Sequence record: MT446387.1
Strand: one strand, 5' to 3'
From: Escherichia phage TH09
Length of the DNA stretch: 64,000 bases
The notes under the pieces are model-generated. The model worked only from the letters and a program-made list of their open reading frames with translations, ran no database searches and was not told where the DNA came from. The translations under genes and the position numbers were made by a program. This document shows positions 3,630 through 58,748 of the stretch, piece after piece (position 1 is the stretch's first letter; each line of letters starts with the position of its first letter).

Positions 3630-3801
3630 AGAACAAAAAGATAAATTGTTTGAGCTTATCCATGAACTTCTAGATGAGCATATAGAAGCAAACACTTTTT
3701 ATGATGAATACGGCCCGCTATCTCCAGAACAGCAGGAAGAATTTGCTGATCGGTTTGATAAGAAAGAAAACGAATTAATAGCTTATGTGAATACGCTTTA
3801 A
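3616..3801 (+). CDS. hypothetical protein
   Basis: 61-aa acidic ORF. Confidence 0.4.
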   Translation: MSLSKEQKDKLFELIHELLDEHIEANTFYDEYGPLSPEQQEEFADRFDKKENELIAYVNTL

Positions 3802-3810
3802 GAAGGTGAT

Positions 3811-4392
3811 ATGGCGAGTTTAATTTTTACTTATGCAGCAATGAATGCTGGAAAATCTGCTTCTCTTTTGACTGCTGCACATAATTATAAAGAACGTGGA
3901 ATGAGTGTATTAGTTCTTAAGCCTGCTATTGATACTCGCGATTCTGTCTGTGAAGTTGTTTCTCGCATTGGAATTAAACAGGAAGCGAATATTATTACAG
4001 ATGATATGGATATTTTCGAGTTCTATAAATGGGCTGAAGCACAAAAAGATATTCATTGCGTATTTGTAGATGAAGCTCAGTTTTTAAAAACTGAACAGGT
4101 GCATCAATTAAGTCGAATTGTTGATACATATAATGTTCCTGTTATGGCTTATGGATTAAGGACTGATTTCGCTGGAAAATTGTTTGAAGGTTCTAAAGAA
4201 CTTTTAGCGATTGCAGATAAACTTATTGAACTAAAGGCAGTTTGTCATTGCGGCAAAAAAGCGATTATGACAGCTCGATTAATGGAAGATGGAACACCAG
4301 TTAAAGAAGGTAATCAAATCTGTATTGGTGATGAAATTTATGTTTCTTTGTGCAGAAAACATTGGAATGAATTAACTAAAAAGCTCGGTTAG
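3811..4392 (+). CDS. tk: thymidine kinase
   Basis: 193 aa; P-loop AMNAGKSASLL; C-terminal CxxC...C zinc motif; matches T4 Tk. Confidence 0.9.
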   Translation: MASLIFTYAAMNAGKSASLLTAAHNYKERGMSVLVLKPAIDTRDSVCEVVSRIGIKQEANIITDDMDIFEFYKWAEAQKDIHCVFVDEAQFLKTEQVHQLSRIVDTYNVPVMAYGLRTDFAGKLFEGSKELLAIADKLIELKAVCHCGKKAIMTARLMEDGTPVKEGNQICIGDEIYVSLCRKHWNELTKKLG

Positions 4393-52095: not shown

Positions 52096-52330
52096 ATTAA
52101 GTTGGTACCAGTTTAAATCTCTTATGACAAATGTTAAAGCTGTCATTCAAGAAAATCCAGGACCTGATAATGTTACTATTCGCGAAAAAGCTTCAAAGAT
52201 AGTATACAGTCTTGAAGAGATACAAAAAGACATTGAATCTATGGCAAAATTTATTGATGAGCCTATTAATAAAGTTTATATTCAAGACTATACTGTAGGC
52301 CAAATTCGCGATTTAGCGAGGAAAGTTTAA
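52088..52330 (+). CDS. hypothetical small protein, member 3 of tandem trio
   Basis: track ORF 52073..52330; ATG 52088; ...LEEIQKDIESMAKF...IQDYTVGQIRDLARKV resembles member 2. Confidence 0.4.
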   Translation: MIELSWYQFKSLMTNVKAVIQENPGPDNVTIREKASKIVYSLEEIQKDIESMAKFIDEPINKVYIQDYTVGQIRDLARKV

Positions 52331-53013
52331 TGTTTGATTTTATTATAGATTTTGAAACAATGGGAAGTGGTGAAAAAGCAGCTGTTATTGATTTGGCTGT
52401 AATTGCTTTTGACCCTAATCCAGAAGTCGTTGAAACATTTGATGAATTAGTTTCACGTGGCATTAAAATCAAATTTGATTTAAAAAGCCAAAAAGGACAT
52501 CGTCTTTTTACTAAAAGCACTATCGAATGGTGGAAGAATCAATCCCCTGAAGCTCGAAAAAATATTGCACCATCAGATGAAGATGTAAGCACTATCGATG
52601 GTATTGTAAAATTTAATGATTACATCAATGCGCATAATATCGATCCTTGGAAATCTCAAGGCTGGTGCCGTGGAATGTCGTTTGATTTTCCAATTTTAGT
52701 CGATCTCATTCGTGATATTCAACGCCTTAATGGTGTATCTGAGAATGAGCTTGACACATTTAAGTTAGAACCGTGTAAATTCTGGAATCAGCGTGATATT
52801 CGTACCAGAATTGAAGCACTTCTACTTGTTCGTGATATGACCACATGTCCTCTTCCAAAGGGAACTTTAGATGGATTCGTTGCACATGATTCTATTCATG
52901 ACTGTGCGAAAGACATCCTGATGATGAAGTATGCTTTGCGATACGCTATGGGTCTTGAAGATGCTCCGTCAGAGGAAGAGTGCGATCCTCTGTCTCTTCC
53001 AACAAAACGATAA
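52330..53013 (+). CDS. dexA: exonuclease A DexA
   Basis: 227 aa; DEDD-type exonuclease motif FDFIIDFETMG; matches T4 DexA. Confidence 0.85.
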   Translation: MFDFIIDFETMGSGEKAAVIDLAVIAFDPNPEVVETFDELVSRGIKIKFDLKSQKGHRLFTKSTIEWWKNQSPEARKNIAPSDEDVSTIDGIVKFNDYINAHNIDPWKSQGWCRGMSFDFPILVDLIRDIQRLNGVSENELDTFKLEPCKFWNQRDIRTRIEALLLVRDMTTCPLPKGTLDGFVAHDSIHDCAKDILMMKYALRYAMGLEDAPSEEECDPLSLPTKR

Positions 53014-53019
53014 AAAGTT

Positions 53020-53049
53020 GTTTACTTCCTCGGTTAGTTGTGGTATTAT
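53020..53049 (+). promoter_or_regulatory. early promoter (GTTTACT-N17-TATTAT)
   Basis: aaaaagttgtttacttcctcggttagttgtggtattat. Confidence 0.55.
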
Positions 53050-53076
53050 AACACCATAGCTACTGAGGATAATAAA

Positions 53077-53589
53077 ATGAAAATTTATCGTGTTGAATCA
53101 TCGTTTAGCGCATTAAATGATGATAGTGGTATAGTCAAAATTAGGCAAGAGTTATGCGTTCAATCAACTCCTTATCGTGGATTTGATTCTATGAAAACTC
53201 GAACTTGGCTAAAATTTTGTGGTATTAATTCATCGTCATTTCATCATCATAGCGATAATTATGAAAGCCATGAAAGTATTCCTATTCCACACGATGATAA
53301 GTTATTAGTTGAAAATGCTAATGATGTTATTAAAACTAAATGGAATAAAGATTATTCACGAATTGAAAATTATATTCCATTGTGGTTTATTGCATTATAT
53401 CATTTTGCTTTCGCTAGTGAATATGATATGATGAGATGGTTCACTCGAGAAGAGCGTGAAGACTTAAAAGAACGTGGAATGTACATTGCGATTTATGAAG
53501 TGCCAGATGACCAAGTTATCATTGGCGGGCACCAAGTAATGTTCCGTAAATCCCATGCCGAATTAAAAGGCTTTATTACCTTAGATTAA
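53077..53589 (+). CDS. hypothetical protein (motB-like position)
   Basis: 170 aa from ATG 53077 after gaggataataaa SD. Confidence 0.35.
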   Translation: MKIYRVESSFSALNDDSGIVKIRQELCVQSTPYRGFDSMKTRTWLKFCGINSSSFHHHSDNYESHESIPIPHDDKLLVENANDVIKTKWNKDYSRIENYIPLWFIALYHFAFASEYDMMRWFTREEREDLKERGMYIAIYEVPDDQVIIGGHQVMFRKSHAELKGFITLD

Positions 53590-53599
53590 AGAGAAAATT

Positions 53600-54037
53600 A
53601 TGATTAAAAATAATGCTGTTTATCAATTGAAAAAATTTGATGAAATTAAGAATTTTTCGGTACTGTCTAATACAGCTCATAATAAGTTTTGTGAACTTCT
53701 TGGTTTAACTGGCGGATATCCTTTTACTGTTATTAGTGTTAATAGCGGAATTCTTATCGGTATGATGTATATTGAAATTAGAAACTATTATGGAATGGTA
53801 TCACCGCTTATTATTTATGAAAAAGATTTTAGTCTATTGACAGAAATTGAAAAACCTGAAGATCCAACTGATCTGCTGTGTAAGGCAGTTTATATTCGTC
53901 GTCCATTCGCGAATCCTGTGGGTGGATGGGTGACTGATCAGTGGATTGAAGATGGTGTTGAACTTCTGAACGTAGTTCATGCTGGAGAGTACTCTGTAGT
54001 TCCTCGCAGCGCAGTGATTAATGTTCGTGTAAGCTAG
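53600..54037 (+). CDS. hypothetical protein, paralog 1 of tandem trio
   Basis: 145 aa; C-terminal ...GGWVTDQWIEDGVELLNVVHAGEYSVVPRSAV. Confidence 0.45.
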   Translation: MIKNNAVYQLKKFDEIKNFSVLSNTAHNKFCELLGLTGGYPFTVISVNSGILIGMMYIEIRNYYGMVSPLIIYEKDFSLLTEIEKPEDPTDLLCKAVYIRRPFANPVGGWVTDQWIEDGVELLNVVHAGEYSVVPRSAVINVRVS

Positions 54038-54066
54038 TTTACAAACTCTTGGGACCAGAGTATAAT
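54037..54066 (+). promoter_or_regulatory. early promoter (GTTTACA-N17-TATAAT) inside inverted repeat
   Basis: gtttacaaactcttGGGACCagagtataatGGTCCtg. Confidence 0.5.
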
Positions 54067-54109
54067 GGTCCTGCGGAGTATAAATCTTAACAACAAAGAG
54101 AGAAAAATT

Positions 54110-54583
54110 ATGATTACTATCGGTGAAATTAAGCGTGTATCGTCTGCATCTCGTTCTAAAGCTGCAGGTCGTCTAGTTGAAGTGGTAGGACTTCGTACTA
54201 ATGGTACTGGTCGTGTTAAAGAAGTTAAAGTTCGAATCATTCCTAGTTCTGGAAAAACTGAAACTCAGTACGCTTACGTAAGTCCTAAATTTCTGGAAAC
54301 TCGTGTTAGCTCTCATTTTGCTTCTGTTGAAGAAGTTGAATCCACTGAGTCTAATACACAATTTAAATGGGCGTTGTGTAAAGGCGTTGAATTTGTAACT
54401 GATGAAGAATTCGATTATATTGATGATTTCGCTGGTCCAAGTAAAACTGATAGGATGTGTGGCTTCATCACAGACCAATGGGTTGAAGATGGTAAAAAGC
54501 TATACAATATTGTATTTTTAGGTGACTTCCGGGTTGTTGAAGAATCTGAAATCACTCGTTATGCTTCTCCTCGTAAAGCTTAA
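54110..54583 (+). CDS. hypothetical protein, paralog 2 of tandem trio
   Basis: track ORF 54065..54583; ATG 54110; SRSKAAGRLVEVVGL and CGFITDQWVEDGKKLYNIVFLGDFRVVEESEI. Confidence 0.45.
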   Translation: MITIGEIKRVSSASRSKAAGRLVEVVGLRTNGTGRVKEVKVRIIPSSGKTETQYAYVSPKFLETRVSSHFASVEEVESTESNTQFKWALCKGVEFVTDEEFDYIDDFAGPSKTDRMCGFITDQWVEDGKKLYNIVFLGDFRVVEESEITRYASPRKA

Positions 54584-54592
54584 GGAATTATT

Positions 54593-55012
54593 ATGAATAT
54601 TGTAAATCTCTCTACTGGTGATTACGTATATGTATCCGTTGCTTCTCGTTCTAAAGTTGCAGGAAAGCTGGTTGAAGTTCTTTCTGTAAGTGATCCAGTT
54701 TTTGGTCGTAACGAGGTTAAAGTTCGTGACGCTGATGGTAACATTGGTTATGTCTCAAGTCAGTTCATTGAGCCAGAAGAAAGCGCATTTAAATGGAAAC
54801 TTTGTTCTTCAGTTTTAGTTGTAAAAGACCATAAATTCACAATTGCGGCGGCAACAGATGGAACTCCATGGACAACGAATCAAGTCGCTGGTTTTATTTC
54901 GGACCGTTGGGTAGAAGATGGTGTCAAGCTCTACAATATTGTTTTTGCAGGCCAGTTCATGGTAGTTCCTGAATTCCAAATTAAAAAATGGTGCGAAGCA
55001 GCTTTAGCATAA
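54593..55012 (+). CDS. hypothetical protein, paralog 3 of tandem trio
   Basis: 139 aa; SRSKVAGKLVEVLSV and AGFISDRWVEDGVKLYNIVFAGQFMVVPEFQI. Confidence 0.45.
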   Translation: MNIVNLSTGDYVYVSVASRSKVAGKLVEVLSVSDPVFGRNEVKVRDADGNIGYVSSQFIEPEESAFKWKLCSSVLVVKDHKFTIAAATDGTPWTTNQVAGFISDRWVEDGVKLYNIVFAGQFMVVPEFQIKKWCEAALA

Positions 55013-55046
55013 ATTTGCATAAAGTTTAAAATTTTTTCATAAAACT

Positions 55047-55095
55047 ATATACATCAGTAGTTGATTATGGTACTATATCAATATCAACTACTGAT
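55047..55095 (+). promoter_or_regulatory. early promoter cassette with perfect 13-bp inverted repeat around -10
   Basis: ATCAGTAGTTGATtatggtactatatcaatATCAACTACTGAT then ttggagaataaaatg. Confidence 0.5.
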
Positions 55096-55119
55096 ACAGA
55101 AAATAACTTGGAGAATAAA

Positions 55120-55389
55120 ATGGAAAACTTAATTATCATCGAGCAATCTTTTAACGATTATGGTATGGCTTACGGTTATCGTGCGATAATGGAAGATTCT
55201 CGTGGATGTGTTATCGATATTGCTGAATGTAAAGATTTACTGCAGCTTTTGAAGATTGTTCGTAAAAATTGGGATTGTGAAAATATTAAAGTTCGAGTTG
55301 TTACAGAAGAAGAAACTGTTTTTCATGATGTAAAATTCGCTAAAGGTGCTGCTACTCTTCTGAAACGTATCGCTCCAATGTTTAATTAA
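55120..55389 (+). CDS. hypothetical small protein
   Basis: track ORF 55108..55389; ATG 55120 after ttggagaataaa SD. Confidence 0.4.
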   Translation: MENLIIIEQSFNDYGMAYGYRAIMEDSRGCVIDIAECKDLLQLLKIVRKNWDCENIKVRVVTEEETVFHDVKFAKGAATLLKRIAPMFN

Positions 55390-55402
55390 TGAGGAAATTG
55401 TA

Positions 55403-55618
55403 ATGAAACGTAAAATTGTTCAGAATTGCACTAATGACGAATTTGAAGATGTATTATTTGACCCAGATTTGGTAGTGGTTCAAAAGGAACACACCATCAA
55501 GTTTACTCACTTGACTTCGGTTTATGTGTATGAAAAGGTTGGTGATAAACAACCAATTTACGGTGTATTTCGTGAAATTACTGAAGATGGCACAACTTAC
55601 TGGAAGGAAATTTATTAA
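55403..55618 (+). CDS. hypothetical small protein
   Basis: 71 aa. Confidence 0.4.
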
Positions 55619-56043
55619 TGGCTATTAAATTTGAAGTTAATAAATGGTATCAATTTAAAAATAAACAAGCTCAAGAAGCTTTTATTAAAGACCATACTGA
55701 TAACGGAATTTATGCACGACGTTTAGGTATGCATCCTTTTAAAATTTTAGATGTTGACCATCTTGGTCGTCCTACTAAAATTATGTCATTTACTGGCACA
55801 ATTGGATATGCAACACATGGTGATATCCTTGACGAAAACTTTATCTGGCTCTCTACTAACGAAGCCGAGTTCTTTGATGAAGTGGAAAATCCATATCAGG
55901 CAGCTGAAGAGCAAGAGCAGGAAGAGCAAGAGCAAGAACAAATAGAAGATTTCACAGAATTCCCAGTCATGAAAGTTACTATTGAAAATAATGAACAGGC
56001 ATGGTCCTTGTATCAGATGCTGAAAGCTCATTTTAAGGAATAA
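55618..56043 (+). CDS. hypothetical protein with acidic EQ-repeat
   Basis: 141 aa; [12 protein letters not shown] tract. Confidence 0.4.
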
Positions 56044-56045
56044 TT

Positions 56046-56222
56046 ATGCCAATGTATGATTATAAATGCCAATCCGAAGATTGCGGGCATGAATATGAAA
56101 AAATTAAAAAGATTTCTGAACGAGAAAATGATGTTTGCCCTAAATGTCATCGTTTGTCTACTCGTCGGCCTTCTGCTCCTAAGCATGTGAATGGTGGTTT
56201 TTACGATTTACTTAAAGGGTGA
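56046..56222 (+). CDS. zinc-ribbon small protein (FmdB-like)
   Basis: about 58 aa; MPMYDYKCQSEDCGHEYE...CPKCH. Confidence 0.45.
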   Translation: MPMYDYKCQSEDCGHEYEKIKKISERENDVCPKCHRLSTRRPSAPKHVNGGFYDLLKG

Positions 56223-56224
56223 TT

Positions 56225-56596
56225 ATGTTTAAAATCGGTAAGAAATATCGTATTCGCGAAGGCGAAGAAAAGAAATATCTAATGTCTGCTATTTATAGGA
56301 ATGGTTCTATTAATGCTGTAATATCTACAAGCGAATTTATCGTTGAAGATATGAAAGGTCATAATGTTACAATGATTAGTACAGCATCTGGAAATGATGG
56401 AAAAATTCTTCACAGCTTTCAGAGTAATGTTCTAATTTATGATGAAGAATTTGACTTCTTCGAAGAAGTTACAGAAGATTTTGATTTTGGATGCACCATC
56501 ACTATGAAATCTGGTGACCCTCTTTCTTTTACAGTTAAAGATGAAAGAAGTCGCTTGAGAATTATTAGTCTTCTTCAAGCCATTAAATTTGAGTGA
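56225..56596 (+). CDS. hypothetical protein
   Basis: track ORF 56219..56596; ATG 56225. Confidence 0.4.
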   Translation: MFKIGKKYRIREGEEKKYLMSAIYRNGSINAVISTSEFIVEDMKGHNVTMISTASGNDGKILHSFQSNVLIYDEEFDFFEEVTEDFDFGCTITMKSGDPLSFTVKDERSRLRIISLLQAIKFE

Positions 56597-56927: not shown

Positions 56928-58748
56928 GTGATGATTAAGAATGAAATTAAAATTCTGAGCGATATTGAACATATCAAAAAGCGTAGCGGCATGTACATTG
57001 GTTCTTCTGCTAATGAAATGCATGAGCGCTTTCTGTTTGGTAAATGGGAAAGTGTTCAGTATGTACCTGGTCTTGTTAAGCTTATTGATGAAATTATCGA
57101 TAACTCAGTAGATGAAGGTATTCGTACTAAGTTTAAATTCGCAAATAAAATTAATGTTACTATTAAAAACAATCAAGTAACAGTTGAAGATAACGGTCGC
57201 GGTATTCCACAAGCGATGGTTAAAACACCTACTGGTGAAGAAATTCCTGGTCCAGTTGCTGCTTGGACTATTCCAAAAGCGGGTGGTAACTTCGGTGATG
57301 ATAAAGAACGCGTCACCGGTGGTATGAATGGTGTTGGTTCTAGTTTGACAAACATTTTTTCTGTGATGTTTGTTGGTGAAACTGGCGATGGTCAAAATAA
57401 TATTGTAGTTCGTTGTTCAAATGGCATGGAAAATAAATCCTGGGAAACTATTCCTGGAAAATGGAAAGGAACTCGTGTTACTTTCATTCCAGATTTTATG
57501 TCATTTGAAACTAATGAGCTGTCCCAAGTTTATCTTGACATTACACTGGATCGTCTCCAGACACTTGCAGTAGTTTATCCTGATATTCAATTTACCTTTA
57601 ATGGTAAAAAGGTTCAGGGCAATTTTAAGAAATATGCACGACAGTATGATGAACATGCTATTGTTCAAGAACAAGAAAATTGTTCTATTGCGGTTGGTCG
57701 TTCACCGGATGGATTTCGCCAATTAACTTATGTGAATAACATTCACACTAAGAATGGTGGCCATCACATTGACTGTGTTATGGATGATATTTGTGAAGAC
57801 CTTATTCCACAAATCAAACGTAAGTTCAAAATTGATGTAACTAAAGCACGTGTCAAAGAATGTTTGACTATCGTTATGTTTGTCCGTGATATGAAAAACA
57901 TGCGATTTGATTCTCAAACTAAAGAGCGTTTGACTTCTCCATTTGGTGAAATCCGTAGTCATATTCAACTTGACGCTAAAAAGATTTCACGCGCTATTCT
58001 AAATAATGAAGCAATTCTGATGCCAATTATTGAAGCTGCACTAGCTCGTAAATTGGCAGCAGAAAAAGCAGCTGAAACTAAAGCAGCTAAAAAGGCTTCT
58101 AAGGCAAAGGTTCATAAACATATTAAAGCTAATCTGTGCGGTAAAGATGCTGATACTACTCTTTTCTTGACTGAGGGTGATTCTGCTATCGGATATCTTA
58201 TTGATGTTCGTGATAAAGAACTTCATGGTGGTTATCCATTGCGTGGTAAAGTTCTCAACAGTTGGGGTATGTCATATGCTGATATGCTTAAAAACAAAGA
58301 ACTATTTGATATTTGCGCAATCACTGGATTAGTTCTTGGTGAAAAAGCTGAAAACTTGAATTATCATAATATTGCTATTATGACTGATGCTGACCATGAT
58401 GGTCTAGGAAGCATTTATCCTTCTCTGCTCGGGTTTTTTAGTAATTGGCCAGAATTGTTTGAGCAAGGACGAATTCGCTTTGTCAAAACTCCTGTAATCA
58501 TCGCTCAGGTCGGTAAAAAACAAGAATGGTTTTATACAGTCGCTGAATATGAGAGTGCCAAAGATGCTCTACCTAAACATAGCATCCGTTATATTAAAGG
58601 ACTTGGCTCTTTGGAAAAATCTGAATATCGTGAAATGATTCAAAATCCAGTATATGATGTTGTTAAACTTCCTGAGAACTGGAAAGAGCTTTTTGAAATG
58701 CTCATGGGAGATAATGCTGACCTTCGTAAAGAATGGATGAGCCAGTAG
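56928..58748 (+). CDS. 39: DNA topoisomerase II large subunit, uninterrupted (gp39 including the part encoded by gene 60 in T4)
   Basis: 606 aa continuous ORF; GHKL ATPase motif EDNGRGIP; TOPRIM-like C-terminal region. Confidence 0.85.
   Translation: MMIKNEIKILSDIEHIKKRSGMYIGSSANEMHERFLFGKWESVQYVPGLVKLIDEIIDNSVDEGIRTKFKFANKINVTIKNNQVTVEDNGRGIPQAMVKTPTGEEIPGPVAAWTIPKAGGNFGDDKERVTGGMNGVGSSLTNIFSVMFVGETGDGQNNIVVRCSNGMENKSWETIPGKWKGTRVTFIPDFMSFETNELSQVYLDITLDRLQTLAVVYPDIQFTFNGKKVQGNFKKYARQYDEHAIVQEQENCSIAVGRSPDGFRQLTYVNNIHTKNGGHHIDCVMDDICEDLIPQIKRKFKIDVTKARVKECLTIVMFVRDMKNMRFDSQTKERLTSPFGEIRSHIQLDAKKISRAILNNEAILMPIIEAALARKLAAEKAAETKAAKKASKAKVHKHIKANLCGKDADTTLFLTEGDSAIGYLIDVRDKELHGGYPLRGKVLNSWGMSYADMLKNKELFDICAITGLVLGEKAENLNYHNIAIMTDADHDGLGSIYPSLLGFFSNWPELFEQGRIRFVKTPVIIAQVGKKQEWFYTVAEYESAKDALPKHSIRYIKGLGSLEKSEYREMIQNPVYDVVKLPENWKELFEMLMGDNADLRKEWMSQ

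Follow-up and report, generated by a model that had tools for sequence, protein, structure and literature searches.

What are the three small genes that lie side by side upstream of gene 39 in Escherichia phage TH09, and how are they related to one another? In the 64,000-nucleotide stretch of sequence record MT446387.1 analysed here (hereafter called the window), three adjacent open reading frames (ORFs) occupy the plus strand: ORF1 at positions 53600–54037, ORF2 at 54110–54583, and ORF3 at 54593–55012, which encode 145, 157, and 139 amino acids (aa), respectively. An earlier reading of this DNA, hereafter called the "original prediction", had described them at these positions as a tandem triplet of paralogous proteins derived from an old tandem duplication. 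The layout is exactly as described, and the relationship among the three proteins is more complex. Judged from sequence comparison, the "triplet" is one full-length paralogue pair, ORF2 and ORF3, accompanied by one domain-level paralogue, ORF1. We identify ORF2 as MotB, ORF3 as a second MotB-type protein, and ORF1 as a homologue of MotB.1. It is highly probable, in our judgement, that this cluster represents the T-even motB.1/motB/motB-like early genes, located between dexA/motB.2 and cef/goF, and that ORF2 acts by a DNA/H-NS mechanism like that of T4 MotB.

One C-terminal domain, two kinds of N-terminal domain

All three ORFs end with a domain of about 55–70 residues, which forms the core of Pfam PF17613 and carries the near-invariant signature G-[WFY]-[IV]-[TS]-D-Q-W-[IV]-E-D-G-x-x-L-x-N-[IV]-V. 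The original prediction had pointed out a shared C-terminal block, and its conservation proves to be far above chance by BLASTP, Smith–Waterman, Pfam, and hhalign comparisons. The pairwise BLASTP values are 1e-12 for ORF1–ORF2, 1e-10 for ORF1–ORF3, and 6e-29 for ORF2–ORF3, and the Smith–Waterman z scores of the C-terminal parts range from 19 to 28 against 500 shuffles, none of which equals the real score. For PF17613 (motB, "Modifier of transcription"), the curated gathering score applied to the whole protein is 25 bits. In the profile search that had been suggested as a check, all three ORFs clear this threshold: ORF2 with 141.6 bits (2.6e-41) over its full length, ORF3 with 72.1 bits (6.4e-20), and ORF1 with 32.7 bits (8.5e-8) in residues 104–139 only, a C-terminal segment of 36 residues. 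In addition, hhalign aligns the C-terminal profiles of MotB and MotB.1 with a probability of 99.6% (E 5e-25). Pfam, the shuffles, and hhalign rule out a chance resemblance. One detail of the predicted pattern requires correction: its first position had been given as Ile or Phe, and this does not hold, since ORF1 has Val there (GWVTDQW).

The N-terminal parts tell a different story. The N-proximal block SRSK(A/V)AG(R/K)LVEV, which had been attributed to all three proteins, is present in ORF2 and ORF3, and nothing like it is found in ORF1. For the first 86 residues of ORF1, the Smith–Waterman z score is −0.06 with ORF3 and 4.9 with ORF2. We considered, on the basis of the latter value, that the ORF1 head might be a diverged MotB N-terminal domain. 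This idea did not survive the profile–profile test, as hhalign detects no relation between the N-terminal family profiles of MotB and MotB.1 (probability 0.1–0.2%). An internal duplication, which would make the N-terminal domain homologous to the C-terminal domain, likewise left no signal in hhalign (probability at most 2.3%). Several tblastn matches to ORF1 residues 71–142 were examined as possible C-terminal-only mini-proteins and rejected; they lie within proteins of 180 aa and 250 aa whose N-terminal domains are different.

The proposed old tandem duplication stands for ORF2 and ORF3, which are 46% identical in amino acid sequence along their full length and use the same codon for only 58% of their identical residues. 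It does not extend to ORF1, which has only the C-terminal domain (about 55 residues) in common with the other two and carries a different N-terminal domain. A simple triplication of a single gene is thus the wrong model, and a duplication of the C-terminal module combined with an N-terminal domain swap fits better. Patterson-West et al. (2021, PMC7827196) have already described the common C-terminal domain and the differing N-terminal domains of MotB and MotB.1, suggested a duplication, and sorted 102 homologues into categories; they also reported two copies of motB in RB69, in addition to motB.1 (PMC7827196). The paralogy, the family, and the multi-copy genomes all appear in this published work, and the original prediction is a correct rediscovery.

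Which family does each protein belong to? ORF1 shares 78–80% identity with T4 MotB.1 and matches phrog_2333 at 9.3e-68 over residues 1–144; its match to phrog_1671 is confined to residues 79–141. The N-terminal domain of ORF1 (approximately aa 1–86; 53600–53857), predicted to be of the MotB.1/GoF/Frd.2 LSm-like type, precedes the MotB-family C-terminal domain (approximately aa 87–145; 53858–54034). ORF1 displays the hallmarks of MotB.1, namely the relation to PHROG 2333, the N-terminal domain together with the C-terminal DPTDLLC...GWVTDQWIEDGVELLNVVH signature, and the location directly upstream of motB. It lacks those of MotB proper (Category 1), which are the KOW-like head with the SRSKAAG block and a full-length match. 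By homology, ORF1 is thus a MotB.1 protein.

ORF2 and ORF3, in turn, both have the architecture of MotB proper, with the C-terminal domain and a KOW-like head bearing the V-S-x-x-S-R-S-K-A-A-G block, in which the alignment columns S14, R15, S16, and G20 are invariant. They match phrog_1671 over their full length (3.5e-68 and 9.8e-51, respectively). In ORF2, the KOW/SH3-like N-terminal domain (aa 1–64; 54110–54301) is connected to the C-terminal domain (aa 85–157; 54362–54580) by a disordered acidic linker (aa 65–84). ORF3 has these two domains as well, and only a very short linker connects them, the ~20-residue linker being absent. ORF2 is 46% identical to T4 MotB (E 2.6e-47) and 85% identical overall to RB69 MotB, and ORF3 is 37% identical to T4 MotB (E 1.5e-24). 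On these similarities, ORF2 is MotB, and ORF3 is a second MotB-type gene like those of RB69 (RB69p010) and RB32 (ORF010c). When the identities are calculated for the N-terminal and C-terminal domains separately, they amount to 97% and 84% between ORF2 and RB69 MotB, and 92% and 84% between ORF3 and RB69p010. The corresponding values are 46% and 48% between ORF2 and ORF3, 59% and 49% between T4 MotB and ORF2, and 51% and 44% between T4 MotB and ORF3. Since the domain-wise identities pair each protein with its RB69 counterpart, ORF2 and ORF3 are separate, old lineages.

ORF3 starts 9 nt past the stop codon of ORF2 and has its own AAGGA Shine–Dalgarno sequence (54582–54586). For ORF2, a mechanical list of ORFs gives the start as 54065, and the start annotated in the related records corresponds to 54110. 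The ATG at 54065 coincides in part with the −10 hexamer of the promoter described below, and the related records use the equivalent of 54110; we therefore regard 54110 as the sensible start.

We also encountered hybrid-looking MotB genes (P0104, P0036, P0033, and P0034), in which the N-terminal part of one type is joined to the C-terminal part of another, with the junctions at the conserved blocks. In P0104, the N-terminal part is 98% identical to that of T4 MotB, and the C-terminal part is 95% identical to that of ORF3. These genes occur only on short Logan/ENA contigs and may be assembly chimeras, and the best match of P0104 in complete phage genomes is 76%. We do not rely on them as proof of recombination between the paralogues.

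Fold of the domains and damaged reference copies of motB.1

What fold does the shared domain adopt? We built AlphaFold2 models of ORF2 and ORF1 with family alignments, which reached predicted local distance difference test (pLDDT) values of 81.7 and 84.0, respectively. The ORF2 model consists of a four- to five-strand N-terminal barrel, a disordered linker (residues 66–82, pLDDT below 50), and a C-terminal barrel. In the ORF1 model, a beta-alpha-beta-beta-beta-(alpha)-beta domain at the N terminus is followed by a C-terminal barrel of five strands. In both models, the C-terminal domain is a meander of five strands in which a 3-10 turn connects beta4 to beta5, as in the SH3-like small barrels. 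The structural hits common to the two models were assigned to this domain, because it is the only one that the models share. The SH3-like fold resembles the Tudor/chromo/PWWP/KOW small beta-barrels, such as the 53BP1 tandem Tudor and the PHF19 Tudor, at a sequence identity of 7–20%. This Tudor-type likeness of the models is a structural analogy and not a family membership, and what was measured is the similarity of the folds only. In Pfam, the Tudor, chromo, and PWWP entries gave no match at E values up to 1, and motB was the sole match of the ORFs. A sequence search of the PDB with the ORFs gave no match, and NCBIfam yielded none for ORF1 and ORF2; ORF3 had a sub-threshold SH3 match of 13 bits, against a cut-off of 65 bits.

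IF5A and EF-P start with an SH3-like domain. In the literature, the MotB C-terminal domain is classed as an OB fold of the cold-shock type, an assignment derived from HHpred matches to archaeal IF5A (PMC7827196). The AlphaFold2 models do not display this OB fold. We therefore read the common C-terminal domain, as modelled, as an SH3/Tudor-like barrel rather than the published OB fold, and we suggest that the SH3-like domain of IF5A/EF-P, and not the OB domain, is what it resembles. In our interpretation, all three products are small proteins built from two beta-barrels.

The N-terminal domain of MotB.1 was assigned, by structure comparison, to an LSm-like barrel common to GoF and Frd.2 (Kim et al. 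2025, PMC12152347). The GoF protein of the window gives a weak hhalign match to the MotB.1-type N-terminal profile (probability 9%, E 0.0036). The same profile aligns with the product of a 125-aa ORF with a GTG start, located between 39.2 and 39.1 on the plus strand (56219–56596), with 88% probability (E 3e-6, 80 columns). This ORF is not present in T4 and has no annotation in the GiZh record; from this alignment, its product appears to belong to the GoF/MotB.1/Frd.2 N-terminal family as another representative in this locus.

How long is an intact MotB.1 protein? In the T4 reference genome (AF158101.6 / NC_000866.4), motB.1 contains one extra G within the DQWIEDG codons, which leads to the annotated 119-aa, 13.8-kDa protein. 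This gene, at positions 3792–4151 of locus L002 (NC_000866.4, minus strand), is the counterpart of positions 53600–54037 of the window. Over a 201-nt stretch, eleven other T4 records, together with T4T, RB55, and RB59, match over 200 bases with one difference, which is the lack of the extra G, and one of these records annotates a 143-aa MotB.1 with the complete C-terminal domain. Altogether, 15 other records of T4, RB55, and RB59 are free of the insertion. The 143-aa form is encoded on 256 contigs, and the 119-aa form on 2. The 119-aa reference MotB.1 of T4 is almost certainly a truncated artefact, as judged by these records, with the intact protein comprising 143–145 aa. Kim et al. used the reference coordinates and outsourced gene synthesis, worked with a 13.8-kDa MotB.1, and mention no frameshift (PMC12152347). 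Their negative MotB.1 results may thus concern the truncated protein.

The RB69 reference genome (NC_004928.1) is affected in the same C-terminal domain. Its motB.1 gene (positions 3860–4373 of locus L004, minus strand) contains two extra bases, and the stretch in question measures 241 nt, whereas over 80 close relatives have 239 nt there. The two extra bases break RB69 motB.1 and give rise to the 29-aa ORF RB69p012, which explains the separate "Category 3" peptide of the literature. From the single existing RB69 sequence, a sequencing error and a strain mutation are indistinguishable. Both the T4 and RB69 references carry small insertions precisely in the part of motB.1 encoding the C-terminal domain, and the only experiments on MotB.1 function seem, as a result, to have been done with a protein missing that domain.

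These observations lead us to a tentative extension, which we regard as possible, although rather doubtful: the common C-terminal domain, as a Tudor/SH3-like barrel and not an OB fold, might be a common host-targeting or self-association module, possibly the toxic part of the proteins, and the true role of MotB.1, and of the three-protein set acting jointly on the nucleoid or on H-NS, might have been missed by tests with the truncated form.

Expression and the proposed action on host DNA

How would the three genes be expressed? The original prediction had noted an early promoter in front of one copy, and the sequence at 54038–54066 on the plus strand agrees with it well: TTTACA and TATAAT, separated by 17 nt, match 11 of the 12 consensus positions, and no other site in the region 52900–55700 scores as well. 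The same promoter sequence is present in T4, and the GiZh record calls it promoter-like. By its sequence, it is a sigma-70-type promoter of the T4 early type, located in front of ORF2 and ORF3. ORF2 and ORF3 would accordingly be transcribed as a pair from this strong early-type promoter, and ORF1 would be transcribed jointly with motB.2 by early transcription from upstream.

Folding predicts an RNA hairpin 3′ of ORF3 (55053–55095, plus strand), composed of a 13-bp stem and an inner 5-bp stem. The surrounding 116 nt (55010–55125) fold with −25.7 kcal/mol (z = −4.9), and none of 200 shuffles is as stable. The hairpin sequence is also found after motB in T4. As it lacks a T-run, the hairpin is not a canonical intrinsic terminator, and an Rfam search gave no match for it. 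It may be a 3′-end or processing structure of the motB transcript, or a stabiliser.

What would the proteins do? The original prediction left their function as unknown. This holds in part, and it does not hold for ORF2, which is 46% identical to the characterised DNA-binding MotB of T4. T4 MotB is toxic to E. coli and attaches to host DNA as well as modified T4 DNA with no sequence specificity; in the presence of DNA, H-NS and StpA co-purify with it, and it doubles the burst size (PMC6070864). It is reported to be highly abundant, already from 1 min after infection; it changes the H-NS footprints, and 75 host genes are up-regulated, about one-third of which are in the H-NS regulon (PMC7827196). 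By homology, ORF2 would be made in quantity from the first minutes and would coat DNA without sequence specificity, probably for the most part by way of its N-terminal barrel, which is strongly basic (net charge +7, pI 10.4). It would thereby alter the seating of H-NS on DNA, leading to the de-repression of H-NS-silenced genes, nucleoid compaction, and a modestly larger burst. ORF3 and ORF1 might be diverged variants that reuse the common C-terminal barrel.

Several points weigh against this picture. While T4 MotB is basic (pI 9.23, net charge +6), ORF2 as a whole is not (pI 5.96), and the net charge of its C-terminal domain is −5. ORF3 has a pI of 5.38, with net charges of −1 and +1 in its N-terminal and C-terminal domains, respectively, and ORF1 has a pI of 5.35, with no net charge in its N-terminal domain. 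Because neither is basic, strong non-specific DNA binding is not simply transferable to ORF3 and ORF1. From the charge pattern, the heads would bind nucleic acid and the conserved, fairly acidic C-terminal barrel would be a protein-interaction or self-association module, and we infer a role of the latter in binding a partner or itself. The DNA binding by ORF2 is itself an extrapolation from homology, as its identity to T4 MotB amounts to only 46% and the experiments concern T4 MotB rather than the alleles of the window. The deletion of T4 MotB.1 has no laboratory phenotype, and MotB.1 was inactive in an RNA reporter assay (PMC12152347). Furthermore, if the C-terminal domain had the OB fold assigned in the literature, it could itself bind DNA (PMC7827196).

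Could the shared barrels act on the transcription machinery instead? Tudor/KOW-like barrels attach NusG, UvrD/PcrA, Mfd, and CarD to RNA polymerase. If the MotB barrels were polymerase-binding modules of this kind, then the MotB proteins would be true "modifiers of transcription", with DNA binding as a secondary property. The gene indeed owes its name to an influence on middle transcription (PMC6070864), and MotB was isolated together with the polymerase. However, in the motB amber mutant the T4 early and middle transcripts are unaffected and a small number of late genes show mild impairment (PMC6070864), and no direct contact between MotB and the polymerase is reported in the cited literature. 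We consider this explanation unlikely. An action on RNA is a further rival explanation, as the predicted LSm-like head places MotB.1 beside GoF and Frd.2, and the GoF(D25Y) variant stabilises an mRNA (PMC12152347). In that case, the head of ORF1, and perhaps those of the whole set, would have transcripts as ligands, with the C-terminal barrel bringing in a common partner, and mRNA stability or translation would be controlled early in infection. The acidic nature of ORF1 and ORF3, which speaks against a histone-like coating of DNA, and the frequent binding of nucleic acids among the PWWP, Tudor, and KOW barrels are consistent with this. In contrast, MotB.1 had no clear effect in a gene 41 5′-untranslated region reporter, in a construct that was probably the truncated 119-aa form (PMC12152347), and T4 MotB demonstrably binds DNA (PMC6070864). 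An RNA-directed function seems quite improbable to us.

Finally, the three genes might be redundant dosage copies that raise the MotB activity, considering the high reported abundance of MotB (PMC7827196) and the fact that the copy number varies from one to three among related phages with no obvious penalty. The copies, however, are old and diverged, as seen in the 46% identity between ORF2 and ORF3, and ORF1 differs from them in its N-terminal domain. Their charge patterns are unlike one another, and each type forms its own lineage across genera (ORF2 with RB69 MotB, and ORF3 with RB69p010), which points to separate selection. We give very little credence to a mere dosage effect.

The T-even motB locus and its known relatives

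Where does this cluster stand among the known phages? A 3.1-kb stretch around the three ORFs shares 99% identity with Escherichia phage JLBYU24 and 91–99% with the other best-matching Tequatrovirus genomes listed; for the Tequatrovirus genomes with motB, MotB-like, and motB.1 annotations at these positions, the identity is 95–99%. By this similarity, the source of the window is a Tequatrovirus (T4-like) phage. In the Tequatrovirus records, the genes under the match are named motB, "MotB-like transcriptional regulator", motB.1, cef, goF, and dexA. The plus strand of the window is the reverse of the standard T4 map direction, and the order along it is dexA (52330–53013), motB.2 (53077–53589), ORF1, ORF2, ORF3, a 93-aa ORF (55108–55389), cef, goF, 39.2, the 125-aa ORF, 39.1, and gene 39 (56928–58748), the 93-aa ORF and gene 39 being on the plus strand. 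The 93-aa ORF belongs to phrog_3720, to which no function is assigned. The same gene order is found at the motB locus of T4 and of RB69, with T4 having motB.1 and motB only, without ORF3. Of the 93-aa gene, T4 retains the start codon region and the last ~55 nt, out of frame; since only this remnant is left, a deletion has occurred here in T4. Gene 39, which encodes the topoisomerase II large subunit, is undivided in the window as one 606-aa ORF and corresponds to genes 39 and 60 of T4.

Among 50,697 phage records, 921 contain the 33-residue consensus of the C-terminal core, at 1818 places in total. Among the matches listed, one place occurs in the Klebsiella, Raoultella, and Enterobacter phages and in T2, two in most Tequatrovirus, and three in JLBYU24, RB68, and several others. 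ORF3-type genes (at least 80% identity) are present in 207 of the 773 records with a MotB-type match. Homologue searches with the ORFs retrieved only the MotB or MotB.1 proteins of T4-like phages. A hidden Markov model (HMM) of the C-terminal domain gave 33 matches among 1.84 billion representative proteins. Five of them are long proteins (601–862 aa) and look spurious, as the two inspected are repeat matches (SGYATEQWVE...). The remaining matches range from 43 to ~250 aa, and those inspected are of the two-domain phage type, with a KOW-like head and this tail. In the viral models of BFVD, Foldseek detected only Straboviridae proteins at E < 1e-3. As the HMM and Foldseek searches find no others, the MotB family is confined to the T4-like phages.

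In Klebsiella phage KPV15 (Jiaodavirus), the single MotB-family gene (locus L005, 2220–2626) is annotated as two ORFs of 67–68 aa with a 4-nt overlap. This "split" MotB reflects a frameshift, as seen against the intact 135-aa relative P0249, and not a natural separation of the domains.

A Pfam entry, PHROG families, and two dedicated papers already cover this family, and the discovery value is accordingly small. The practical consequences lie elsewhere. For work on the T4 early genes, the 13.8-kDa reference MotB.1 needs to be corrected to the form of 143–145 aa. An SH3/Tudor-type fold of the common domain would alter the partners and surfaces worth testing. Moreover, the MotB alleles differ greatly in charge, and the results obtained with the basic T4 MotB may not hold for the RB69-type MotB and MotB-like proteins, which are found in about one-quarter of the related phages.

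How, then, does the cluster compare with the known systems? T4 MotB (NP_049626; PF17613; PHROG 1671) resembles ORF2 and ORF3 in its KOW-like SRSKAAG head, C-terminal domain, position, and upstream promoter, and differs from them in its basic nature and in being a single copy, whereas this phage has two. T4 MotB.1 (NP_049627; PHROG 2333; "Category 2") resembles ORF1 in its position upstream of motB, its predicted LSm-like head, and its MotB-type C-terminal domain, most of which is lost from the 119-aa reference protein and intact in the 145-aa ORF1. RB69 (Mosigvirus) has the three gene types, motB.1/motB/RB69p010, in the same order as here, but its motB.2 lies on the opposite side of the cluster, and its reference motB.1 is broken, leaving the 29-aa fragment ORF. 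In its proposed outcome, the early relief of H-NS silencing, MotB is comparable to the H-NS antagonists T7 gp5.5 and T4 Arn and the anti-silencers Ler and VirB (PMC7827196). Gp5.5 and Arn, however, bind the H-NS protein directly, and MotB has no sequence or fold relation to gp5.5, Arn, Ler, or VirB. Taken together, the three genes of the window represent an established gene family whose arrangement is likewise known, and the corrections to the annotation and to the fold are the only new points.

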